Part shown: piece by piece, positions 5,396 to 64,000 of the stretch | How positions within the stretch are numbered: position 1 is the stretch's first letter | How the letters are laid out: the number at the start of each line of letters is the position of its first letter | NCBI GenBank assembly: GCA_934476455.1 | Contig: CAKSNY010000002.1 | Span: forward strand, 10,689 to 74,688 | DNA length: 64,000 bases | Origin: an uncultured Clostridia bacterium | Lineage (GTDB): Bacteria; Bacillota; Clostridia; UMGS1883 | Direction of reading: 5' to 3' | Program-made: the position numbers and the translations under genes | Notes under the pieces: generated by a model | What the model was told of the DNA's origin: nothing | Database searches by the model: none | The model's input: only the letters and a program-made list of their open reading frames with translations

Positions 5396-5768
5396 GGTTA
5401 TAAGCAGCCTGAACGGTCGCGGCAGCGTATAAGCTGATGAGGAAAGTCCGAGCTACGCAGGACAGGATGCCGGAGAAATCCCGGTGAAGGCGACTTTAAG
5501 GAAAGTGCAACAGAAATAAACCGCCGCACCTTGTGCGGTAAGGGTGGAAAGGCGGGGTAAGAGCCCACCGACATTGCGGTAACGCAGTGTGCCATGTAAA
5601 CCCCATCCGTAGCAACGCCGACAGGATTGGCTTGTCCGGCCTATAATCCGAAGGGCGGCTGGAGCTGTGCAGAGATGCACAGCGTAGACAGATGACCGTT
5701 TCGGGGGTAAGGTGCAGAAAACATCAAGCCCCTATGACAGAACTCGGCTTACAGGGCAGCTTATAACA
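5396..5768 (+). ncRNA. rnpB: RNase P RNA (bacterial)
   Basis: universal P4 strands GAGGAAAGTCCGAGC (5'-side) and ACAGAACTCGGCTTACAG (3'-side); P1 pairing between gttataagcagcctg (5397-5411) and cagggcagcttataac (5752-5767). Confidence 0.85.
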
Positions 5769-10379: not shown

Positions 10380-11312
10380 TCAGTCCAATATTTCAAGCGA
10401 ATATTTTTTTTCAAAGCCGTCCGTGGTTAAAACGGTGCGCTTATTCGTAATTATAAGCGCGTCGGTATCGGGAAACGCCCTGCAAAGCTCCAGCCCCTTT
10501 TCGCCCGTTACAAAAATTGCGGTCGACAGGCAGTCTGCCGCGGCGGAGGATGGGGAAATAACCGTTACGGAGGAAACAGAGCCGCCGCTTTGCGCACATT
10601 CGCCCGTTTTGGGGTCTAATATGTGGTGATAACGCACTCCGCCGTATTCAAAAAATCTCTGGTACGAGCCGCTTGTTACCGCGCTTTTGTCTTTTAGGGT
10701 AAAGCGGCAGAAAAGCTTGTCGGGGCTTTGCGGGTCACGCACGCCGACGCGTGCCGTGCCAAGCACATAAACATTGCCGCCGAGATCCAGTATAGCTTTT
10801 TTTACGCCGCTTTTATAAAGCGCGTCTGCGGCTTTGTCTGCAATATATCCCTTTGCGCACGCGCCGAAGTCAAGCTGTGTGCCGCCGAGTGACAAGGGGC
10901 TTAGGCTTATTTTATCAAACCCCGTTTTGTTAAGCGCCGATGCAATTTCCTCCTTTGTCGGCGGAACGGTGCGCTCTTTTATGTTCCACAGGTCGGAAAG
11001 GGCGCCAAGGGTACAATCAAACGCACCGCCCGTTATATTATACATTTTTTCGCAAAGGCTTAAAAGCGCGCGGATGTCCTCTCCCGCGGTTTTCTTTGCG
11101 CCCGAATTTATTAAGTACAGCTCGCTTTCGGGGTCGGTACGGCTGAAAATTTTTTCGTATTTTCTGCACAGCTCATATGTTTTTTCGCAAGCGTCCTTCG
11201 GAGCGGTGACGGTAATTTGCGTATCCAGCGCAAAAAAACGACGCGTTTCGTCTTTCCTTGCGCAGGCGCAAAAAATAAGCGGTATCAATATAAAAAAAAG
11301 AAACTTTTTCAC
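10380..11312 (-). CDS. apbE: FAD:protein FMN transferase (ApbE family) lipoprotein
   Basis: lipoprotein signal + ApbE motifs ([19 protein letters not shown]). Confidence 0.85.
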
Positions 11313-14979: not shown

Positions 14980-16332
14980 CTAATATATTCTTACGGCGTC
15001 CTTGCTGCCTTTTTTTATTACAAATATTTTCCCGTCGGGCGAGGCAATGTCGCTTCCTGTATAAATCCACGGGAAAAGCTTTGTAAGCTTTTCGTTTTCA
15101 TAGCAAAAGTAGCCGTCGTTTGCGGCGGAAACCTCATACGTTTCGATAGGGGGGATGTCGTTATTTGCCCATTCGCACTTAAGGTAAAGCTTGTTTTGGG
15201 CTGCGCCGATAAGCTTCATCGAGCCGTAATCGGGGAATAAATCGTTAATACACATAACGCTGCCATCGGCAGAAATTTTGTAAAGCTTTTCTCCGCTTGT
15301 TGCCATTCCTTTCCAATGTATGTAGCGGATTGCATTTACGTATATATCATCTCCGAGCGCGGTACAGTTTGTAAAATAGGCGTCCTCCTGCACAAAAACG
15401 TATTTGCCGCCGAGGATTAAAAAGCCGTAGCGCTCAAACGGGGTGTACGGCGGGGGGATTTCATCTGGTGTAGATGTATATATAACAACGTTAAGAAATT
15501 TTATGCCGTTCATTTCTTCAACCGAGGCATATCCCGATAAATCCGACGCGCTGCCGCCGTTTTCAAGGTGCTTTACCGTGCCGAGCTTTACCCCGCCCAC
15601 AAGGTAGGAGGTGCCGTCAAACGTAACGTCCTCCGATTTTTCATATTTTGGGTATGTCGTTTGATAAAGCGCATCATAAGAGGCAAAGCCCTCGCTCTCA
15701 AGGGTGGTTTTTGTAAGCTGCCCGGTTTTATAATTAAGCCTGAAATACTCGTCCTCGTAATCGGACGGCGCCTGACGGTGTAAAAGCGCATTTTCGCTGT
15801 CCAGCGAAAAAAGGCGGCTTAGAAAATCTTTAGTATCTTCACGGTAGGTTAAAAGGGTAAAGGTGTTGTTTTCCCACGAAACCGTCCAGTTAAACTCCTC
15901 GGCGGCAAAACGCCACGTCATGGGAAAATATGTTACGCCGCGGAAATTTAAGAGCGGGTACTCCTCTTTTTGATTGTCGATAAGCTTTCCGTTTATATAT
16001 ATGGGGTAAGAGGGAAGAGATGCGTTATACGCAGCAGCGTTTTTCTGCGTGTCATACACGGGAAGACTGCCGGTTGAACGGTTGTAGGCAATATAAAGCT
16101 CGCTTCCCGTCCAGGTGGAGGTAAGGTTAAGCGCGCGGCAGTAATCGTACGTCATAGGAAAATACGTTATGTCTTTATACGAAATAAGCGGATATTGTGA
16201 GTCGGCATAATACACATCGCAGTCTCCGATTATACATTTGTAGGTTGGTATAACCACCCTGACGTTTTGTGCATTTGCACTGCCTGTATACAGCGCCAAA
16301 GCAAAAAGCATTGCCACAAGAATACGTTTCAT
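14980..16332 (-). CDS. secreted hypothetical protein with repeated copper-amine-oxidase-N-like (stalk) domains
   Basis: signal peptide MKRILVAMLFALALYTGSANA; repeats ITYFPMTYDYCRALNL / VTYFPMTWRFAAEEFN; GGGAGG RBS before ATG 16332. Confidence 0.5.
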   Translation of the reverse strand: MKRILVAMLFALALYTGSANAQNVRVVIPTYKCIIGDCDVYYADSQYPLISYKDITYFPMTYDYCRALNLTSTWTGSELYIAYNRSTGSLPVYDTQKNAAAYNASLPSYPIYINGKLIDNQKEEYPLLNFRGVTYFPMTWRFAAEEFNWTVSWENNTFTLLTYREDTKDFLSRLFSLDSENALLHRQAPSDYEDEYFRLNYKTGQLTKTTLESEGFASYDALYQTTYPKYEKSEDVTFDGTSYLVGGVKLGTVKHLENGGSASDLSGYASVEEMNGIKFLNVVIYTSTPDEIPPPYTPFERYGFLILGGKYVFVQEDAYFTNCTALGDDIYVNAIRYIHWKGMATSGEKLYKISADGSVMCINDLFPDYGSMKLIGAAQNKLYLKCEWANNDIPPIETYEVSAANDGYFCYENEKLTKLFPWIYTGSDIASPDGKIFVIKKGSKDAVRIY

Positions 16333-33919: not shown

Positions 33920-33993
33920 TCGGAGTGGCGGGACTTGAACCCGCGGCCTCTTGGTCCCGAACCAAGCACGCTACCAAACTGCGCTACACCCCG
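33917..33993 (-). tRNA. tRNA-Pro (anticodon CGG)
   Basis: reverse complement gives CGGGGTGTAGCGCAGTTTGGTAGCGTGCTTGGTTCGGGACCAAGAGGCCGCGGGTTCAAGTCCCGCCACTCCGACCA; anticodon loop TTCGGGA, T-loop GGTTCAAGTCC, encoded CCA. Confidence 0.85.
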
Positions 33994-55091: not shown

Positions 55092-55120
55092 TTGACAAAG
55101 CGCGAAAAATGTTTTATTAT
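55092..55120 (+). promoter_or_regulatory. promoter of leader ORF / BCAA-related operon (-35 TTGACA, 17 nt, -10 TATTAT)
   Basis: hexamers at 55092-55097 and 55115-55120. Confidence 0.5.
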
Positions 55121-55151
55121 AGTAGCATACTTTGTGAAAGGAAAAAAGACG

Positions 55152-55265
55152 ATGAACACTGTATTTTATGTGATTAACATAATTGTCATTAACGCTATTA
55201 TTCTAATTGCCGTTACAGCAAAAAAGAATAGCGCTGTTTGTCGTGTGTGCAGAAAGGCGGCATAA
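55152..55265 (+). CDS. 37-codon Ile/Val-rich leader peptide (candidate attenuation leader) or small membrane peptide
   Basis: MNTVFYVINIIVINAIILIAVTAKKNSAVCRVCRKAA: 7 Ile + 6 Val in 37 residues; AAGGA RBS 9 nt upstream; followed 25 nt later by strong terminator. Confidence 0.5.
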   Translation: MNTVFYVINIIVINAIILIAVTAKKNSAVCRVCRKAA

Positions 55266-55289
55266 TCCGTTTTTTTGATATAAGGTTAT

Positions 55290-55325
55290 AACGCCTGCGG
55301 CAATTAGCGCCGCAGGCGTTTTTTA
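55290..55325 (+). terminator. intrinsic terminator/attenuator between leader ORF and operon
   Basis: perfect 12-bp stem aacgcctgcggc / gccgcaggcgtt with 7-nt loop, followed by tttttt. Confidence 0.65.
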
Positions 55326-55349
55326 ATAATTATGAAAGGATGAGCATAA

Positions 55350-56723
55350 ATGCGAAAAATCGGAATTTCGGACATTACACTGGCAACGGCAGGTGCAAGA
55401 GAGCTAAGCTTTAAGGAAAAGGTAGAAACGGCAAAGCAGCTAAGCCGTGCCGAAACGGATTGTATAGAGATGATGCCGCTTACAGGCTCAAAGGCAGACA
55501 TTATCTTTTATCATACTGTGTCCGGACTTACCGACAGGGAAATATGCTGCCCGATTTCTACGGAGGAGGGGCAGACACAGAAAGCTGCGGAGGCGCTTAA
55601 AAATGCGAAAAACGCTTCTGTAAATGTTTGCGTGCCGTCCTCCACCGTGCAGATGGAATATATAGGAAAGAAAAAGCCCGCGGCAATGCTTGCCGCTATG
55701 GAAAGTACCCTCGCAGAGGCGGCAGCGTGCTTTAAAACCACAGAGGTTACTTTTACGGACGCAACACGTGCCGATATAGGGTTTTTAACGCAGATGACAA
55801 AGAAGGCTGCGGAGGCGGGCGCATCGCGCATAACCGTGTGCGATGATGCGGGCGATATGCTGCCGAAAGAATTTAAAGAGCTTGTGAAGCTTGTTAAAGA
55901 GGCTGCGGGAAAAACGCCGGTAGGGGTGAAATGCTCTAACGAGTGCCATATGGCGGCAGCCTTTATGGCAGAGGCGATAGAAGAAGGTGCAGACTATGTA
56001 AAGACAACGGCGCTCGGGAAAGAGGCGGTTTCCCTTAGAACGGCGGCGGGGCTTATAAGCTCTAAGGGGAGCGCACTGGACTGCTTTTGCGGCGTTAATA
56101 TGACGGTGCTTTCGGATTGCAGCGACAAGATATTGCAGGCTGCCGAGGGTAAGGTAACCCCCAAAGCCTCTTTGAACGCGGGAAGCTTTTTTACCGGCAG
56201 TGAGGATATAACAGCCGTTTCACAGGCGGTAAAGGATTTGGGCTATGACCTTAGCGGCAACGATATTGCGGCGGTATACAGCGAATTTTTAAAGACCGCC
56301 GAAAAGAAGAAGGTTTCGCTGCGCGACCTTGACGCGATAGTTGCCGGCTGTGCAATGCAGGCGCCGCCGACCTTCAGCGTACAAAGCTTTGTTGTTACAA
56401 ACGGAAATCTTATAACACCGATGGCAAATATGACCATTGTAAAAAACGGCGAGGCGCTTTCCGGCTGCAGCGTGGGCGACGGACCGATTGACGCGGCGTT
56501 TCGCGCTATTGAGCAGATTGTAGGGCACCATACGGAACTGGACGATTTTCAGGTACAAGCCGTAACGCGCGGGCGCGAGGCGCTCGGCTCGGCAATTGTT
56601 AAGCTGCGTTCGGGCGGTGTTTTGTATTCGGGCAAGGGCATATCAACCGATATAGTGGAAGCGAGCATAGCTGCGTACATAAGCGCACTTAACAAAATAT
56701 ATTACGAGGAGGAAACAAAATGA
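55350..56723 (+). CDS. LeuA/homocitrate-synthase-family protein with degenerate catalytic barrel and intact C-terminal LeuA regulatory (dimerisation) domain
   Basis: C-terminal GDGPIDAAFRAIEQI...GKGISTDIVEASIAAYISALNKI matches LeuA allosteric domain; catalytic motifs replaced: LRDGEQ -> LATAGARE, HxHNDxG -> KCSNECH. Confidence 0.65.
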   Translation: MRKIGISDITLATAGARELSFKEKVETAKQLSRAETDCIEMMPLTGSKADIIFYHTVSGLTDREICCPISTEEGQTQKAAEALKNAKNASVNVCVPSSTVQMEYIGKKKPAAMLAAMESTLAEAAACFKTTEVTFTDATRADIGFLTQMTKKAAEAGASRITVCDDAGDMLPKEFKELVKLVKEAAGKTPVGVKCSNECHMAAAFMAEAIEEGADYVKTTALGKEAVSLRTAAGLISSKGSALDCFCGVNMTVLSDCSDKILQAAEGKVTPKASLNAGSFFTGSEDITAVSQAVKDLGYDLSGNDIAAVYSEFLKTAEKKKVSLRDLDAIVAGCAMQAPPTFSVQSFVVTNGNLITPMANMTIVKNGEALSGCSVGDGPIDAAFRAIEQIVGHHTELDDFQVQAVTRGREALGSAIVKLRSGGVLYSGKGISTDIVEASIAAYISALNKIYYEEETK

Positions 56724-59179
56724 AGCTTTCCTTTTCAACAAACTATCAAAAAACAGACGTAATGCAGGCGCTTGCCGCCGCGAACGAATACGGGTTTCAG
56801 GGGGTGGAAATTCACGATATAAGCGAAACCGAGAATTATGAAATTTCCGACGTGCGGCAAAAAACGGCACAGTACCGCGTGCATATATCGTGCATAGATA
56901 CCGCGGCGGATATATCGAAAGATTTTGACAAGGCATACGCGGAAGCGGTCTGTGCGATAAATAAGGCGGCAGAGCTGCACTGCCCGTACGTAAGGCTGCA
57001 TGCAGAGAGTGAGGATAATGTTTCAGCCTTTTTGCAAAAAACGCTTCCCGATGCCGAAAAAAATAAAATTGTGCTTCTGATAGAATCGTGCGGGGTATAC
57101 GGCGACACGTCAAAGCTGAGAGGGCTTTTGGAGCATTTCGCGTCGGACAGTTTAGGCGCTTTGTGGGATTTTTACCACCCGTACAGAAGCGCGGGCGAAA
57201 CGCCGGACGTCACCGTTAAAAATCTGGGTGCGTACATAAAGCACGTTCATATAAAAGATTCGGATGAAACGGGCGCGTATACCCTTATAGGCGAGGGCAC
57301 AGCCCCTATGGAGGATTTTTTCGGCGCGCTGAGGTCTGTTAATTACGACGGCTATATATCCCTTGAATGGAACGAAAAATGGGCAGACGAGGTAGGCGCC
57401 TGCGAGATAGCGTTTCCGCATTTTGTAAGCTTTATGAATAGGTTTGACGAAACGGCAACCGCAAAGCGCAGCCTTTATCAAAACAAGTCGCAAACGGGTA
57501 AATTTATATGGAAAAAGGACGCGCTTATCGAAAAAACCTTTTCACAGGTGCTGGATTGCTGCGTAGAGGAATTTCCCAACCAAACGGCGATAAGATATAC
57601 CACGCTTGACTATACGAGAACATACAGCCAATTCCGCGATGATGTGGATGAGTTTGCACGGGCGCTTGTTTCCGTAGGCGTTACGGCGGGCAGCCACGTT
57701 GCGGTATGGGCAACAAACGTGCCGCAGTGGTACATTGCGTTTTGGGCGGTTACGAAAATCGGCGCGGTGCTTGTCAGTATGAACACAGCCTACAAAATAC
57801 ACGAGGCAGAGTATTTGTTAAAGCAGTCGGACACGCACACGCTTATTATGACAGAGGGGTATCGGGACTCTAACTACAGAGAAATAATGCAAAAGCTTTG
57901 CCCCGAAACGGAAAACACACCTAAAAACGCCCCGCTTCACGCAAAGAGACTGCCGTTTTTAAGAAATATAATTACAGTAGGTTTTGAAATGCACGGCGCA
58001 ATGACATGGGACGAGGCGCGCGCCGGAGCCGCCGAAACACCGATAGAGGAAATTCACCGCCGCGCCGCTGCGGTAAGCGTGCACAGCGTTTGCAATATGC
58101 AGTATACAAGCGGTACGACGGGCTTTCCGAAGGGCGTAATGCTTACGCATTACAACATAGTAAACAACGGTAAATGTATAGGCGACAGAATGGATCTTTC
58201 CACAGCAGACAGAATGATGATACAGGTGCCGATGTTCCACTGTTTCGGAATGGTGCTGGCGATGACAGCCGCGATGACACATTCGGCAACAATTTTGCCG
58301 CTGCCGTACTTTTCGCCGCGTTCGGCACTTTCGTGCATTGAACACGAGCATATTACGTGCTTCCACGGCGTACCTACGATGTTTATTGCACTTTTGGAAA
58401 ATCCGGATTTTGAAAAGACGGACTTTTCATATATGCGCACCGGCATAATGGCGGGGTCGCCCTGCCCGGTGTCCGTAATGCAGGATGTTTTAAATAAAAT
58501 GAATATGCGCGAGATAACCATTGTTTACGGACAGACAGAGGCTTCGCCGGGCTGCACGATGAGCAGCACTGACGATTCCATCGAAACGCGCGTGGGAACG
58601 GTGGGAAGGGCACTTCCCGAGATAGAATGTAAAATAACAGACCCCGAAACGGGCGAGGAAATGCCCGTAGGCGAGGTTGGCGAGTTTGTGGCGCGCGGCT
58701 ACAACATTATGAAAGGCTACTACAAAATGCCGCACGAAACCGCTGCCGCAATAGATAAGGACGGCTGGCTGCATACCGGCGATTTGGCGCTTAAAACGGC
58801 GGACGGAAACTTCTGCATAACAGGGCGCCTTAAGGATATGATAATACGCGGGGGAGAAAATATTTACCCCAAGGAAATAGAGGAATTTATCTACACGCAC
58901 CCCTCTGTAAAGGACGTACAGGTTATCGGCGTGCCGGACGAGCAATACGGCGAGGAAATAATGGCATGCGTTATACTTAAAGAGGGCACCGCCCTTACCG
59001 CTGACGAGCTGAAGGGCTATATTGCGGAAAATATGGCAAAGCACAAGGTGCCGCGGTATATAGATTTTGTAGAGGAGTTCCCCATGAATGTAGCGGGCAA
59101 AATTCTTAAATATAAAATGCGCGAGGACGCAATAGAGCGCCTCGGCATAAAAAAAGCAGAAGGAATAACAGCGCAATAA
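56720..59179 (+). CDS. fusion protein: N-terminal xylose-isomerase-like TIM-barrel (sugar-phosphate isomerase/epimerase family) + C-terminal AMP-forming acyl-CoA synthetase
   Basis: N-terminal ~245 aa with WDFYHP...HVHIKD...SLEWNE motifs; C-terminal AMP-binding motifs YTSGTTGFPKGV, GYGQTE, WLHTGDLA, GRLKDMIIRGGENIYP; ATGA-coupled to upstream gene; strong GAGGAGG RBS. Confidence 0.75.
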   Translation: MKLSFSTNYQKTDVMQALAAANEYGFQGVEIHDISETENYEISDVRQKTAQYRVHISCIDTAADISKDFDKAYAEAVCAINKAAELHCPYVRLHAESEDNVSAFLQKTLPDAEKNKIVLLIESCGVYGDTSKLRGLLEHFASDSLGALWDFYHPYRSAGETPDVTVKNLGAYIKHVHIKDSDETGAYTLIGEGTAPMEDFFGALRSVNYDGYISLEWNEKWADEVGACEIAFPHFVSFMNRFDETATAKRSLYQNKSQTGKFIWKKDALIEKTFSQVLDCCVEEFPNQTAIRYTTLDYTRTYSQFRDDVDEFARALVSVGVTAGSHVAVWATNVPQWYIAFWAVTKIGAVLVSMNTAYKIHEAEYLLKQSDTHTLIMTEGYRDSNYREIMQKLCPETENTPKNAPLHAKRLPFLRNIITVGFEMHGAMTWDEARAGAAETPIEEIHRRAAAVSVHSVCNMQYTSGTTGFPKGVMLTHYNIVNNGKCIGDRMDLSTADRMMIQVPMFHCFGMVLAMTAAMTHSATILPLPYFSPRSALSCIEHEHITCFHGVPTMFIALLENPDFEKTDFSYMRTGIMAGSPCPVSVMQDVLNKMNMREITIVYGQTEASPGCTMSSTDDSIETRVGTVGRALPEIECKITDPETGEEMPVGEVGEFVARGYNIMKGYYKMPHETAAAIDKDGWLHTGDLALKTADGNFCITGRLKDMIIRGGENIYPKEIEEFIYTHPSVKDVQVIGVPDEQYGEEIMACVILKEGTALTADELKGYIAENMAKHKVPRYIDFVEEFPMNVAGKILKYKMREDAIERLGIKKAEGITAQ

Positions 59180-59200: not shown

Positions 59201-60268
59201 ATGCTTAACATTAAGGTAGAAAAAACAAAAAATCCTAAAACAAAACCGGCAAAGGGTGAAAAGCTGGGCTTCGGTAAAATTTTTACAGACCATATGTTTG
59301 AAATGGATTATACCGAGGGAAAGGGATGGCACGATGCAAGAATAGTGCCGTTTCACAATCTGGAGCTTTCGCCCGCAGCTATGGTTTTTCATTACGGACA
59401 GGAGATGTTCGAGGGGCTTAAGGCATACCGCGGGGCAGACGGAAAAGCGCGGCTTTTCCGCCCGGATATGAACGCAAAGCGTACTACAAACACAAACAAG
59501 CGCCTTTGCATACCGTATCTCCCCGAGGAGGATTTTGTGGAGGCTGTAAAGGCGGTTGTTAAGGTTGATGAGGACTGGATTCCGACAGAGGAGGGGACCT
59601 CGCTTTATATAAGACCGTTTATTATAGCTACGGACGAATTTTTGGGCGTTGCACCCGCGCAGACATACAAATTTATGGTAATTCTTTCACCGAGCGGCGC
59701 GTACTACGAAAGCGGGCTTGCACCGGTGGGCATCTGGGTAGAGGATGAATATGTGCGTGCGGTGCGCGGCGGAATGGGCTTTGCAAAAACGGGCGGTAAC
59801 TACGCCGCAAGCCTGATTGCGCAGGTGAAAGCACACGATGACGGATATTCGCAGGTTTTGTGGCTTGACGGTGTGGAGCAGAAATACATCGAAGAAGTGG
59901 GCGCAATGAACATCTTTTTCAGGATTGACGGAAAGGTTGTTACACCGAAGCTTAACGGAAGCATCCTGCCGGGGGTTACGCGTGACAGTGTGCTTCATCT
60001 TTGCAGGGCAATGGGCTTTGAAACAGAGGAGCGCCGCATAAGCATTGACGAGCTTATTGCCGCGCAAAAGGAAGGAAAGCTTGAGGAATGTTTCGGCACG
60101 GGAACGGCGGCAGTTATTTCACCTGTGGGCAAGCTGCGCTACAAAGATGACGTTATGACGATAAGCGGCAATAAAATAGGCGAGCTTACGCAAAAGCTTT
60201 ACGATAAATTAACTGGTATTCAATGGGGAAAATGTGAGGATGAGTTCGGATGGAGCGTAGTTCTTTAA
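59201..60268 (+). CDS. ilvE: branched-chain amino acid aminotransferase
   Basis: 355 aa; FGKIFTDHMF, GQEMFEGLKAYR, PLP-fold class IV motifs. Confidence 0.85.
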   Translation: MLNIKVEKTKNPKTKPAKGEKLGFGKIFTDHMFEMDYTEGKGWHDARIVPFHNLELSPAAMVFHYGQEMFEGLKAYRGADGKARLFRPDMNAKRTTNTNKRLCIPYLPEEDFVEAVKAVVKVDEDWIPTEEGTSLYIRPFIIATDEFLGVAPAQTYKFMVILSPSGAYYESGLAPVGIWVEDEYVRAVRGGMGFAKTGGNYAASLIAQVKAHDDGYSQVLWLDGVEQKYIEEVGAMNIFFRIDGKVVTPKLNGSILPGVTRDSVLHLCRAMGFETEERRISIDELIAAQKEGKLEECFGTGTAAVISPVGKLRYKDDVMTISGNKIGELTQKLYDKLTGIQWGKCEDEFGWSVVL

Positions 60269-60939
60269 AAAGAATAAATGTTTTCTGCGGGCATTACGGC
60301 AGCGGAAAAACAAACATCGCGGTAAATTACGCGCTGATGCTTAAAAAGCGCTTTGAAAGGGTTGCCATAGCAGACCTTGACATTGTAAACCCGTATTTCA
60401 GAACAAAGGACGCGGCGGATATTCTTAAGCAAAACAGTATCAGGGTTATATCATCGCCGTATGCAAACTCAAACGTAGATACGCCCGCACTTCCGGCAGA
60501 GATTTACTCCGTCACGGACGAGGGCGACCTGCACGCCGTTATAGACGTCGGCGGTGACGACCGCGGGGCACTTGCCCTCGGTCGATTTAAGGAAAACATA
60601 GAGAGAGCGGGCGGCTGCAATCTGTTTTTTGTTATAAATATGTACAGACCCTTAACAAAAACACCCGAGGAAGCCTTTTGTGTGCTGAAAGAAATCGAAG
60701 CGGCGTGCCGTATGCGCTTTGATTATATAATAAACAACTCAAACCTGGGCGAGGCAACCACCGCGCACGACATAGAACGTTCGTTTGAATATGCGCGTGC
60801 GGTGGAAAGCCTTACGGGGCTTAAAACGGCATTTACAACAGTTAAAACAGAGCTTTACCCGAAAATAAAAGGCAAAGCGGAAAATATTATACCAATTAAG
60901 CTTTTTGTAAGACAAAGCTGGGAAGAAAGGAATGAGTAA
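60250..60939 (+). CDS. P-loop NTPase of unknown function (Walker A GHYGSGKT, DVGGDD switch-like motif)
   Basis: Walker A near N-terminus, hhhhDxxG motif VIDVGGDD; 19-nt overlap with ilvE; embedded between ilvE and oxidoreductase genes. Confidence 0.5.
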   Translation: MERSSLKRINVFCGHYGSGKTNIAVNYALMLKKRFERVAIADLDIVNPYFRTKDAADILKQNSIRVISSPYANSNVDTPALPAEIYSVTDEGDLHAVIDVGGDDRGALALGRFKENIERAGGCNLFFVINMYRPLTKTPEEAFCVLKEIEAACRMRFDYIINNSNLGEATTAHDIERSFEYARAVESLTGLKTAFTTVKTELYPKIKGKAENIIPIKLFVRQSWEERNE

Positions 60940-60940
60940 T

Positions 60941-61144
60941 ATGGCAAAGGTAACGTTTGACAGCGAGCGCTGCAAGGGCTGCGGCTTGTGCGTGCACGCC
61001 TGTCCGAAAAATATTGTGGCATTGGGAAACACGCTTAACGCACGCGGGTATCACAGCGCAGAGGTAACGCAGCCCGAAAAATGCGTAGGGTGTGCGTTCT
61101 GCGCATCGATGTGTCCCGATTGCGTAATAACGGTTGAAAGATAA
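60941..61144 (+). CDS. 2-oxoacid:ferredoxin oxidoreductase delta subunit (2x[4Fe-4S] ferredoxin)
   Basis: two CxxCxxCxxxCP motifs (CKGCGLCVHACP, CVGCAFCASMCP), 68 aa. Confidence 0.7.
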   Translation: MAKVTFDSERCKGCGLCVHACPKNIVALGNTLNARGYHSAEVTQPEKCVGCAFCASMCPDCVITVER

Positions 61145-61161
61145 GGAAAGGATTGAAAAAT

Positions 61162-62223
61162 ATGGCTGAAAAAGTTTTGATGAAAGGAAACGAAGCTTTG
61201 GCAGAGGCTGCAATAATGGCAGGCTGCCGCCACTACTTCGGATATCCTATCACCCCGCAGACAGAGGTTGCGGCGTATATGGCAAAAAGAATGCCTAAAA
61301 TCGGCGGAACATTTCTTCAGGCGGAAAGCGAAATTGCCGCAATAAATATGGTTATCGGTGTGGCTTCGACGGGGAAAAGGGCGATGACGTCAAGCTCCAG
61401 CCCCGGCATAAGCCTTAAAAGCGAAGGTATATCGTATCTTGCGGGGTGCGATTTGCCCGCGCTTATTGTAAACGTTCAGCGCGGCGGTCCCGGGCTCGGC
61501 GGAATACAGCCGTCGCAGTCGGACTATTTCCAGGCAACGCGCGGCGCCGGGCATGGAGATTTTCACCTGATAGTGCTTGCACCGGCAAGCGTGCAGGAAA
61601 TGGTAGAGCTTGTTTTCCGCGGTTTTGACCTGGGCGAAAAGTACCGTATGCCCGTTATGCTTTTGTCAGACGGCACAATGGGGCAGATGATGGAACCCGT
61701 AGTGCTTGAACAAAAGGAAATCGTACAATATGATAAATCGTGGGCGCTTACGGGAACGGACGGCGTGCGCAAGCCAAACATTGTAAATTCGCTTTTCTTA
61801 AAGCCCGAAGAACTGGAAAAATTCAACTTTGCGCGGTACGAGCGTTACAAAAAAATCGAAGAAACCGAAACCATGTACGAGGAATATAAAATGGAGGACG
61901 CGGAAATTTGCGTCGTAGCGTTCGGCGTGGCGTCACGCGTTTCAAAAAATGCGATAGACGAGGCGCGTGCCATGGGCATAAAGGTAGGTATGATAAGACC
62001 CATCACCCTTTGGCCTTTCCCGAAAAAAGCTCTTTTGAAGGCTTCGGAAAAAGTTAAGAAATTTATTTCGGTAGAGCTTTCAATGGGGCAAATGACAGAG
62101 GATATTTCACTGGCTGTAAAATGCCGCCGCGAGGTGCTTCTTTGCAACCGCACCGGCGGAATGATACCCACAACGGCAGAGGTTGTGGCAAAAATAAAAG
62201 AAGCTTGCGGAGGTGCAGAGTAA
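61162..62223 (+). CDS. 2-oxoacid:ferredoxin oxidoreductase alpha subunit
   Basis: KorA/VorA/PorA-like N-terminus (LMKGNEALAEAAIMAGCRHYFGYPITPQTE). Confidence 0.8.
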   Translation: MAEKVLMKGNEALAEAAIMAGCRHYFGYPITPQTEVAAYMAKRMPKIGGTFLQAESEIAAINMVIGVASTGKRAMTSSSSPGISLKSEGISYLAGCDLPALIVNVQRGGPGLGGIQPSQSDYFQATRGAGHGDFHLIVLAPASVQEMVELVFRGFDLGEKYRMPVMLLSDGTMGQMMEPVVLEQKEIVQYDKSWALTGTDGVRKPNIVNSLFLKPEELEKFNFARYERYKKIEETETMYEEYKMEDAEICVVAFGVASRVSKNAIDEARAMGIKVGMIRPITLWPFPKKALLKASEKVKKFISVELSMGQMTEDISLAVKCRREVLLCNRTGGMIPTTAEVVAKIKEACGGAE

Positions 62224-62966
62224 TGGTAGTTTTTGAAAAGCCTAAGGCGCTTACGGACGCGCCGCTTCATTACTGCCCGGGCTGTACGCACGGCATTATA
62301 CACAGGCTTGTTGCACAGGCAATAGACGAGCTTGGCATTGCGGGGCGTACGATAGGCGTAGCGTCGGTAGGGTGCAGCGTGTTTGCATATAATTATTTTA
62401 ACTGTGATATGGTACAGGCAGCGCACGGGCGCGCACCTGCGGTGGCAACGGGCGTAAAGCGCAGCGACCCCGAAAAAAACATCGTCTTTACATATCAGGG
62501 CGACGGCGACCTTGCCGCAATAGGAACAGCGGAAACCGTACACAGTGCGGCACGCGGCGAAAACATAACGGTAATATTTGTAAACAATGCCATTTACGGT
62601 ATGACGGGCGGGCAGATGGCACCCACAACGCTGCCGGGGCAGAAAACGCAGACATCGCCGTACGGGCGTGACGTCAGTACAGTGGGCTATCCCGTAAAGG
62701 TATGCGAACTGCTTTCAAATGTGGACGGTGCGGCGTATCTCGAACGCGTGGCGGTCAACAATCCGGCAAACGTTAAAAAGGCAAAAGCGGCAATTAAAAA
62801 GGCGTTTTCAAACCAGCTTGAAAACAAGGGCTTTTCTCTTGTAGAGGTGCTTTCAACCTGCCCCACAAACTGGGGATTGGAACCGCAGAAGGCGCTTAAC
62901 TGGCTGGAAGAAAATATGATTCCGTATTACCCGTTGGGTGTTTACAAGGATAAATATGCAAAGTGA
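62223..62966 (+). CDS. 2-oxoacid:ferredoxin oxidoreductase beta subunit (TPP-binding)
   Basis: YCPGCTHG and TPP motif GDGD...N; start ATG overlaps alpha stop (TAATG). Confidence 0.8.
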   Translation: MVVFEKPKALTDAPLHYCPGCTHGIIHRLVAQAIDELGIAGRTIGVASVGCSVFAYNYFNCDMVQAAHGRAPAVATGVKRSDPEKNIVFTYQGDGDLAAIGTAETVHSAARGENITVIFVNNAIYGMTGGQMAPTTLPGQKTQTSPYGRDVSTVGYPVKVCELLSNVDGAAYLERVAVNNPANVKKAKAAIKKAFSNQLENKGFSLVEVLSTCPTNWGLEPQKALNWLEENMIPYYPLGVYKDKYAK

Positions 62967-62976
62967 GGTGCGCAGA

Positions 62977-63519
62977 ATGAATAAAGAAATACTTATAGCG
63001 GGCTTCGGCGGTCAGGGGATTTTGTTTTCGGGGAAATTTCTTGCTTACGAAGGTCTTATAGAAAACCGCAATGTAAGCTGGCTGCCGTCTTACGGACCGG
63101 AAATGCGCGGCGGCACCGCAAATTGCAGCATTATTTTAAGCGACGGCGCTATAGGCTCGCCGATTGTTACAAATCCTGACATACTTATAGCGATGAATTT
63201 ACCCTCGCTTGACAAGTACGAAGCGGAAACAAAGCCGGGCGGCGAAATATTTGCGGAAAGCTCGCTCATTGAAAGAAAGCTCAGCCGCACAGACGTTTCG
63301 GGCTATTACATTCCCGCAACGCATCTTGCCGACGAAAACGGGCTTTCGGGTCTTGCAAATATGATTATGCTGGGATATATGATTAAGAAAAGCGGCGTAA
63401 TTCCGACAGAAAATATAGACGCCGCACTCTCAAAGGTTGTGCCGCCGTCAAAGGCACACCTTATCGAAAAGAACAGGCAGGCAATAGATATAGGCTATAA
63501 CTACGGAGAGGAGAAGTAA
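62977..63519 (+). CDS. 2-oxoacid:ferredoxin oxidoreductase gamma subunit
   Basis: ILIAGFGGQG N-terminus; GTGAGGTG RBS. Confidence 0.8.
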   Translation: MNKEILIAGFGGQGILFSGKFLAYEGLIENRNVSWLPSYGPEMRGGTANCSIILSDGAIGSPIVTNPDILIAMNLPSLDKYEAETKPGGEIFAESSLIERKLSRTDVSGYYIPATHLADENGLSGLANMIMLGYMIKKSGVIPTENIDAALSKVVPPSKAHLIEKNRQAIDIGYNYGEEK

Positions 63520-63525
63520 GAAAAA

Positions 63526-64000
63526 TGAACGAGCAGCTAAAAGATATAGGTATGCGGCTTATGTCCCTGCGCGAGGACTGCGAATATACTATAGAGCAAA
63601 TGGCACAAAAGCTGAACCTTGATACGGAGGCGTACAAGGCTTACGAGGCGGGCAACCGTGATTTCTCTTTCAGCTTTGTATATAACTGTGCAAACATATT
63701 GGGCGTGGATGTGCTTGATATAATAAGCGGCGAAGCCCCCACACTTTCAAAGGCGTGTATGGTGGAATCGGGCAAGGGCTACAGCGTGAAGCGCGAGCAT
63801 GAGTATGATTACCGACATCTTGCATATACCTTCAGAAACAAAAAGGCAGAGCCGTTTTTGGTAACGGTAAACCCCGATGACGAAACACCCGTTCTTCACG
63901 GACACGAAGGGCAGGAGTTTAACTATGTTTTGTCCGGAGAGATGACTATATACATAGGCGATATTTCATATGAAATGTCTAAGGGTGACAGCATCTATTT
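63526..64000 (+). CDS. XRE-family HTH + cupin-domain transcriptional regulator (3' end beyond window)
   Basis: N-terminal HTH (MRLMSLREDCEYTIEQMAQKLNL), C-terminal cupin motif (HGHEGQEFNYVLSGEMTIYIGD). Confidence 0.65.

Follow-up and report, generated by a model that had tools for sequence, protein, structure and literature searches.

A LeuA-like pseudoenzyme as a candidate amino acid-sensing partner of a putative branched-chain acyl-CoA ligase in gut and rumen bacteria

The 64,000-nucleotide stretch analysed here (hereafter the window; positions 10,689 to 74,688 of contig CAKSNY010000002.1, assembly GCA_934476455.1, from an uncultured Clostridia bacterium of the UMGS1883 lineage) carries, at 55350..56723 on the plus strand, a gene for a 457-amino-acid relative of the 2-isopropylmalate synthase LeuA, followed directly by a gene for an acyl-CoA ligase fusion. 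A preliminary description, drawn from the letters and their open reading frames (ORFs), had seen in this LeuA-like protein a pseudoenzyme with a conserved regulatory domain, raising the question of what such a protein could do at the head of an operon that starts with a ligase. We addressed it with Pfam, NCBIfam, phmmer, MAFFT, AlphaFold/Foldseek and hhalign, and by comparing gene neighbourhoods among relatives. Although the catalytic residues of its pathway-enzyme paralog are gone from the LeuA-like protein, the sequence is under purifying selection. We propose, with moderate confidence, that it serves as a non-catalytic regulatory subunit, sensing leucine or another branched-chain amino acid (BCAA), of an isovalerate-type CoA ligase in BCAA synthesis by reductive carboxylation.

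Fold, former active site and regulatory domain

The fold and domain order of LeuA, with a LeuA_dimer domain after an HMGL-like (beta/alpha)8 barrel, are both present according to Pfam and Foldseek. The HMGL-like match covers residues 18–223 (E 1.8e-23) and the LeuA_dimer match residues 322–451 (E 3.6e-31), the latter bearing out the earlier assignment of the C-terminal part to the LeuA allosteric/dimerisation domain. The AlphaFold model has a predicted local distance difference test score (pLDDT) of 85.7, with residues 268–278 of low confidence. In the structural comparison with LeuA that the preliminary description had proposed, Mycobacterium tuberculosis LeuA matched best over the full length, the top Foldseek entries being 3hps, 3fig and 1sr9, and the model barrel superposes on 3eeg at 1.7 Å root-mean-square deviation. 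Three parts can be delimited on the plus strand: a degenerate HMGL-like (DRE-TIM) barrel (55350..56144, residues 1–265), a shortened accessory/linker region (56145..56312) from which a LeuA segment of about 45 residues bearing HxSGIHxD is deleted, and the LeuA_dimer (PF08502) domain (56313..56702, residues 322–451), in which GDGPIDA (376–382), GxxALG (408–413) and GxGxSTD (428–434) are invariant. The peptide GDGPIDAAFRAIEQI...SGKGISTDIVEASIAAYISALNKI of this last domain spans residues 376–450, and the barrel peptides DITLATAGARE, KCSNECHMAA and GKEAVS stand at residues 8–18, 194–203 and 223–228 of the same ORF.

The hallmark catalytic residues, which the preliminary description had reported as gone, are replaced or deleted in every alignment that we made. 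In a MAFFT alignment with Escherichia coli LeuA and 21 relatives, R13 and D14 of the DTTLRDGEQ motif correspond to A12 and T13, H202 and H204 to K194 and S196, and N238 to A226 within a GERAGN motif that is 4 residues shorter. The Glu of the 'EDA' motif (E218 of M. tuberculosis LeuA) is T136 in the window protein and L, M, A, D and others across the family, and about 45 residues of subdomain I, including HxSGIHQDG, are missing. The register is identical in phmmer alignments to the LeuA barrels 3rmj, 3ewb and 3eeg of the Protein Data Bank (PDB), and again in a profile-profile comparison by hhalign with seven LeuA-type sequences of 500–520 aa (probability 100, E 1e-95, 470 columns). Because the three registers agree, a catalytic triad that is present but shifted, which the preliminary description had named as the outcome that would overturn it, could be ruled out, the hhalign register being decisive. 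None of the divalent-metal ligands of LeuA (Asp, His-x-His, Asn) is kept, nor are its catalytic Arg (R80 in M. tuberculosis), its catalytic Glu (E218) or the His-bearing subdomain I, residues whose roles in LeuA have been described (PMC10464499, PMC9860122). As for the DRE-TIM Asp-Arg-Glu signature, the Glu remains (E40, in 64 of the 65 family members that form the set for all position counts and mean pairwise identities given here), and the window protein has A12 and T13. Four of six listed LeuA-defining features are thus lacking. The non-catalytic nature put forward earlier therefore holds by three independent alignment methods and over the whole family, as far as the machinery of Claisen condensation is concerned: judged by its residues, the protein is not a LeuA but a variant of the LeuA superfamily with the catalytic site lost, predicted to be incapable of the metal-dependent condensation.

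The degree of decay differs among members. Position 12 is Arg in 51/65, Asp occurs at position 13 in two, and positions 13 (E 34, Q 7, T 5, S 5, others) and 194 (E 41, Q 7, A 5, others) vary, S being found at position 196 in 57. The window protein thus lies at the most degenerate end of its family, and the variability at the former metal-ligand positions indicates that they are unconstrained. One might ask whether the family nonetheless works as a genuine, if divergent, 2-isopropylmalate or citramalate synthase using alternative residues, given that it has the fold and domain order of LeuA, that one homolog is named 2-isopropylmalate synthase by the Joint Genome Institute (JGI), that many members keep Arg12 and that Glu is frequent at positions 13 and 194. 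We regard this as scarcely credible, since neither the metal ligands nor the catalytic Glu nor the subdomain with the His residues is conserved, each being missing or variable, leuBCD are not adjacent to the gene, and the protein scores far under every NCBIfam equivalog cutoff. The top NCBIfam model, NF002086, gives 230.8 bits against a cutoff of 532 and TIGR00973 gives 202 against 598.7; all LeuA, CimA and NifV models match far below their cutoffs, and by these scores the domain is nearer LeuA than CimA.

The family is large and well delimited. Of 8000 candidates in a word-indexed search, 7708 proteins scored at E<=0.001, true LeuAs included; the best 120 matches are 457–484 aa long, 43–99% identical and labelled 'hypothetical protein' by NCBI, although '2-isopropylmalate synthase' is the JGI name of one. 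When 1.84 billion representatives were searched with a profile, about 120 full-length clusters (453–497 aa) at 50% identity were listed, LeuA-type proteins of about 500–516 aa turning up only under about 340 bits, and among its top 150 representatives none was longer through fusion of the LeuA-like protein with a ligase, TIM or other domain. In a scan of GTDB species at least 597 species genomes had a confirmed locus, the carriers being nearly all metagenome-assembled genomes (MAGs) of gut and rumen Clostridia and Lentisphaeria, the former including Oscillospiraceae, Acutalibacteraceae, Faecousia and Lachnospiraceae-labelled bins. The alignment has 44 invariant columns. A decaying pseudogene was considered and ruled out by the conserved full-length members in hundreds of species.

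Conservation is unevenly distributed. Mean pairwise identity is 0.49 in the barrel, 0.46 in the accessory region and 0.72 in the regulatory domain, and of the columns that are invariant in LeuA (defined on seven LeuA-type sequences) the family keeps 16/54, 3/11 and 10/12, respectively. Retained barrel columns include D8, T10, E40, D137, R140 and D165. Two further barrel residues are family-specific and lie on the former active-site face: Q101, which is His in LeuA, and K218, which is Glu, both invariant in 65/65. They raise the alternative of a barrel with a new function, in which a lysine-based pocket (K218, Q101) replaces the metal site and binds or transforms a 2-oxoacid, an acyl-CoA or an acyl-AMP, making the protein a catalytic or substrate-presenting subunit. 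The sixteen barrel columns that are still LeuA-like, the high confidence with which the barrel is modelled, and the presence among the fold matches of DmpFG-type complexes, which pair an HMGL-like barrel with a CoA-dependent enzyme, would all fit such a role. Set against it, conservation is much lower in the barrel than in the regulatory domain, the surroundings of the former metal site vary freely, the subdomain I that covers the LeuA active site is deleted, and some ligase fusions with a Leu T-box occur without a LeuA-like protein (see below); we consider it unlikely.

Conservation is highest in the regulatory domain, where the N-termini of model helices 379–391 and 435–456 bear the invariant GDGPxDA and GxGxSTD motifs. 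G462 of E. coli LeuA, whose change to Asp (G462D) is feedback-resistant, aligns with the near-invariant G413 of the family. In M. tuberculosis LeuA the leucine carboxylate lies between two helix N-termini with a capping loop above (PMC11057210). The effect of leucine on LeuA is to make the accessory and regulatory domains rigid above the barrel of the partner (PMC9860122). In CimA, the PF08502 domain is an autonomous isoleucine sensor, specificity among such domains varying between leucine and isoleucine (PMC13381585). A phmmer search of the PDB with the regulatory domain alone gave chance matches only (MurA, PPR, activin receptor), so the leucine-pocket residues could not be mapped one by one. 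Retention of the predicted effector site is judged from conservation at the level of motifs, and a putative retained role in BCAA sensing appears to be the best-supported reading of this domain.

Partial degeneration is seen in three other LeuA-like proteins of about 500 aa (P0342, P0347, P0351): in some, HxSGIHQDG is missing although His-x-His and GERAGN are present, and one has DSTLCEGE and HSQND. With these, LeuA paralogs appear as a graded series of catalytic decay.

Linkage to the ligase and control of transcription

The gene immediately 3' of the LeuA-like gene encodes a fusion of a xylose-isomerase-like TIM barrel (AP_endonuc_2; 56720..57505, plus strand) with an AMP-forming acyl-CoA ligase (AMP-binding plus AMP-binding_C; 57506..59179, plus strand). 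Its start overlaps the LeuA-like stop in an ATGA, as had been noticed earlier; the overlap is real and a GAGGAGG Shine-Dalgarno sequence lies just upstream. The link between the two genes is much stronger than the preliminary description could see. When the window operon proteins were searched by tblastn against 83 non-redundant loci of relatives, the TIM-ligase fusion stood immediately 3' of the LeuA-like gene in 79/79 loci with enough downstream sequence, that is, obligately, and stop and start overlap in 39 of these 79 (by 4 nt in 35 and by 1 nt in 4). Identity to the window across loci is 67–89% for the ligase domain, 32–58% for the TIM domain and 40–65% for the LeuA-like protein. A reverse test on 80 metagenome loci chosen by TIM-domain patterns alone found the ligase fused to the TIM domain in 72/72 and the LeuA-like gene upstream in 65/69. 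Stand-alone TIM homologs (about 30% identity) were uninformative, as they sit in unrelated contexts with arginine genes or a radical SAM gene.

Transcription offers a second line of evidence. T-boxes turn on genes for aminoacyl-tRNA synthetases, biosynthesis and uptake when the cognate tRNA is uncharged, and a T-box core, GGGTGGTACCGCG, precedes the LeuA-like gene in 89/141 loci, typically 75–130 nt away and followed by a terminator. Rfam confirmed RF00230 in 17/18 scanned T-box loci, at 95–125 bits against a gathering score of 93. In 63/67 parsed T-boxes 5' of LeuA-like genes, the specifier codon at model positions 92–94 of the loop reads CUG or CUC (Leu). Common neighbours of the operon are one or two further ligases of 755–771 aa with an N-terminus made of a helix-turn-helix (HTH) and a cupin; the specifier 5' of these is AUC (Ile) in 22 and GUA or GUC (Val) in 7 of the 30 parsed, pointing to a separate ligase for each branched-chain fatty acid. 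Nine specifiers were read directly in cmscan alignments, six Leu and three Ile. Since genes under a T-box act to replenish the amino acid that the T-box monitors, the operons would serve to supply leucine, isoleucine and valine.

The exceptions in the reverse test bear on how indispensable the LeuA-like protein is. In three of the four (L128, L166 and L168, from bioreactor metagenomes and others) no LeuA-like gene lies within 6 kb, and a T-box motif stands directly 5' of the TIM-ligase (at about 6001); all three T-boxes parse as Leu (CTC). A TIM-ligase with a Leu T-box can thus do without the LeuA-like protein, which argues that the latter is an accessory and not an indispensable catalyst.

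The preliminary description had placed the LeuA-like gene first in its operon, and the region 5' of it agrees: on the plus strand a promoter-like site, TTGACA-17-TATTAT (55092..55120, 11/12 matches), is followed by a short leader ORF, MNTVFYVINIIVINAIILIAVTAKKNSAVCRVCRKAA (55153..55265), and an intrinsic-terminator hairpin of 12 bp, 9 of them G-C, with a T run (55290..55326), ending 24 nt 5' of the start codon. Seven of the 37 residues of the leader ORF are Ile, six Val and one Leu. The region 55128–55335 folds with a minimum free energy of -61 kcal/mol (z-score -4.07). Rfam detected no T-box or other known RNA leader in the window at the gathering score; the matches below threshold at E<=10, PyrR (24 bits against 54) and Thr_leader (21.9 against 55), were driven by the terminator. 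With a promoter, an Ile/Val-rich short ORF and a terminator, the leader is a candidate BCAA leader-peptide attenuator, situated where most relatives have a Leu T-box. Leader ORFs rich in Ile, Leu and Val occupy the equivalent place in L008, L043, L048, L064, L012, L010 and L014. A block within the leader, AATAGCGCTGTTTGTCGTG (55227..55245, plus strand), is shared by 8 loci with at most 4 mismatches, 118–132 nt 5' of the start codon, and because the leader ORF stops before it in three of the 8 the block appears to be conserved at the RNA level. As the window leader is rich in Ile and Val, the effector of the window protein may not be leucine.

These controls also speak to the direction of the pathway. 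The same genes could in principle serve a catabolic operon, running from BCAA through 2-oxoacid and acyl-CoA to the fatty acid, with the LeuA-like protein sensing leucine as a substrate signal; branched-chain aminotransferase (BCAT) and 2-oxoisovalerate:ferredoxin oxidoreductase (VOR) are reversible and are also used in Stickland-type oxidation. Induction on amino acid scarcity by Leu, Ile and Val T-boxes and by a BCAA-rich leader is, however, the opposite of catabolic logic. The ligase is moreover of the AMP-forming type, which consumes ATP and does not conserve energy as ATP, and the clusters looked up showed no phosphotransacylase/kinase pair, which together make a catabolic role very improbable.

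The rest of the operon follows on the plus strand in the window: a class II BCAT of the ilvE type (59201..60268; NF009897, 505.7 bits against 307), a P-loop NTPase with a weak ParA/CbiA/Mrp match (60250..60939), VorD, a delta subunit resembling a 2x[4Fe-4S] ferredoxin (60941..61144), VorB, the alpha subunit of VOR (61153..62223, with a likely ATG at 61162; NF005507, 539 bits against 399), the thiamine pyrophosphate (TPP)-binding beta subunit (62223..62966), the gamma subunit with a POR domain (62938..63519), and the first part of an HTH(XRE)-cupin protein, the rest of which lies past the window end (63525..64000). Among relatives, 21/35 fully flanked loci have the four-subunit VOR and the P-loop protein no more than 10 kb away, and 16/35 have BCAT at that distance. 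An oxidoreductase of about 1170 aa of the pyruvate:ferredoxin oxidoreductase (PFOR) type stands directly after the ligase in L002 and in both Lentisphaeria loci looked up (L006 and L019). Such arrangements bring in the alternative of a scaffold or assembly factor, whose dimer would bridge the ligase and the ferredoxin oxidoreductase and channel acyl-CoA, amino acid binding being secondary. The tight linkage and translational coupling of the LeuA-like gene to the ligase, the oxidoreductase directly 3' in Lentisphaeria and L002, and the nature of LeuA_dimer as a dimerisation module are compatible with this. We hold it to be improbable, as oxidoreductase genes are missing within 10 kb in 14 of the 35 fully flanked loci, conservation peaks in the ligand-clamping motifs and not over a broad surface, and nothing indicates a contact with VOR.

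Several observations concern the other operon members. The P-loop NTPase lies directly 5' of VorD in every VOR cluster seen (46–59% identity) and might serve the oxidoreductase as an Fe-S or assembly factor. The HTH(XRE)-cupin module at the window end (63525–64000) forms, in relatives, the N-terminus of a second type of AMP ligase; such ligases of 755–771 aa lie near the LeuA-like operon in L004 (4665–9262) and in L006 (8047–10362), and L025 has a further T-box near its end (16034–16242) with GUC (Val) at the specifier position. The TIM domain of the ligase fusion has no obvious part in fatty acid activation. It is modelled at pLDDT 91.2, and its structural matches are generic (ketose 3-epimerase, Art22 and UlaE types; TM about 0.77, 13–22% identity); a literature search for Art22 gave nothing relevant. 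Its metal ligands of the sugar-epimerase type (Glu/Asp/His/Glu) are mostly kept, E122 in 58/78 and H177 in 77/78, the exceptions being Lys at E122 in 19/78 and Asn at D150 in 7/78. At a contig end in L090 (8001–9083), 3' of the LeuA-like gene, a 360-aa ORF, P0191, joins the TIM domain directly to POR_N, which may reflect loss of the ligase or faulty assembly. Elsewhere the window has two ordinary housekeeping features, a bacterial class A RNase P RNA (5401–5767, plus strand, 271 bits) and a tRNA gene (33920–33993, minus strand).

A possible route and its regulation

That anaerobes of the rumen and gut form leucine, isoleucine and valine by carboxylating isovalerate, 2-methylbutyrate and isobutyrate has been known since the 1960s, and isoacids are fed to cattle for this reason. 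The gene set of the operon matches this reductive-carboxylation route of rumen physiology, and the operon probably makes BCAAs from branched-chain fatty acids of the gut and rumen. In such a scheme the ligase would convert a branched-chain fatty acid of the isovalerate type to its acyl-CoA in an ATP-consuming first step, VorDBAC working in reverse would carboxylate the acyl-CoA reductively to the 2-oxoacid, and BCAT would aminate the latter to the amino acid. The formation of leucine from isovalerate by carboxylation and amination is documented in rumen bacteria (PMC7356843), and AMP-forming ligases specific for short branched chains are known, MbcS of Staphylococcus aureus being one example (PMC10026030).

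Within this scheme the LeuA-like protein would form a complex with the TIM-ligase encoded by the next gene and, on binding leucine or another BCAA, would throttle the ligase step. A clamp of the regulatory domains on the partner protein, comparable to that in LeuA, is conceivable. Transcription would be placed under amino acid-starvation control, by Leu T-boxes in most relatives and by the Ile/Val/Leu-rich leader-peptide attenuator in the window. As the TIM-ligase is linked to leucine and has a constant partner derived from LeuA, in which only the sensing domain is strongly conserved, an allosteric subunit sensing the end product is the most economical explanation. More tentatively, we suggest a wider picture in which the subunit senses leucine specifically and gives feedback on the isoacid route, the HTH-cupin ligases serve isoleucine and valine, and the operons represent the long-missing genetic basis of isoacid assimilation.

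Several points weigh against the proposal of a BCAA-sensing ligase subunit. First, the complex is predicted from genetic linkage only, and the binding of a ligand from conserved motifs. Second, the invariance of Q101 and K218 on the former active-site face means that the barrel may bind or catalyse something, and the retained metal ligands of the TIM domain suggest a putative catalytic function of which our model makes no use. Third, AMP-forming ligases favour the assimilatory direction on general grounds only. Finally, specifier assignment is heuristic at most loci, 25 of the 92 T-boxes 5' of the LeuA-like gene being unparsed, and with an Ile/Val-rich leader that holds a single Leu the effector in the window could be isoleucine or valine.

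Full-text searches, which did not cover all journals, found no description of the LeuA-like family or of the genes and regulation of isoacid carboxylation. The operons now offer a testable gene set, comprising three ligase types with T-boxes for their own amino acids, VOR, BCAT, the P-loop protein and a candidate feedback sensor. Wrong 2-isopropylmalate synthase labels can mislead reconstructions of leucine prototrophy for hundreds of MAG species. If the proposal is correct, the LeuA-like protein would be a clear new case of an allosteric domain reused, by way of a pseudoenzyme, to control a different enzyme.

Comparison with known systems

The closest known system is LeuA itself (TIGR00973/NF002086; structures 1SR9, 3FIG and 3RMJ), with which the window protein shares the fold, the domain order and the motifs of the regulatory domain, and which is likewise encoded by the first gene of a leucine-responsive operon. 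The window protein is however about 60 residues shorter, it is without the HxSGIHxD subdomain and the residues of the Arg/Asp, Glu, His-x-His and Asn elements, and its gene neighbours an acyl-CoA ligase gene instead of leuBCD. With the regulatory domain of CimA it has the PF08502 family in common; its own domain is closer to that of LeuA, the ligand being predicted to be a BCAA.

HisZ, the histidyl-tRNA-synthetase-like regulatory subunit of ATP phosphoribosyltransferase, has lost catalysis and kept amino acid binding. The logic would be similar, a formerly catalytic paralog of an enzyme of the same amino acid pathway giving end-product control to a different enzyme, which for the LeuA-like protein is hypothetical, and both fold and partner are unrelated to those of HisZ. 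The valine-sensing subunits IlvN and IlvH of acetohydroxyacid synthase (AHAS) are encoded beside the enzyme that they control, which opens a BCAA route (PMC13381585); they differ in having an ACT fold that does not derive from an enzyme and a function established experimentally. At the level of transcription, the enterobacterial ilv and leu attenuators have, as does the window, a promoter, a short ORF dense in Ile, Val and Leu codons and a terminator before the first structural gene, whereas the window leader rises above no Rfam leader threshold and belongs to a Clostridia-type host whose relatives use T-boxes.

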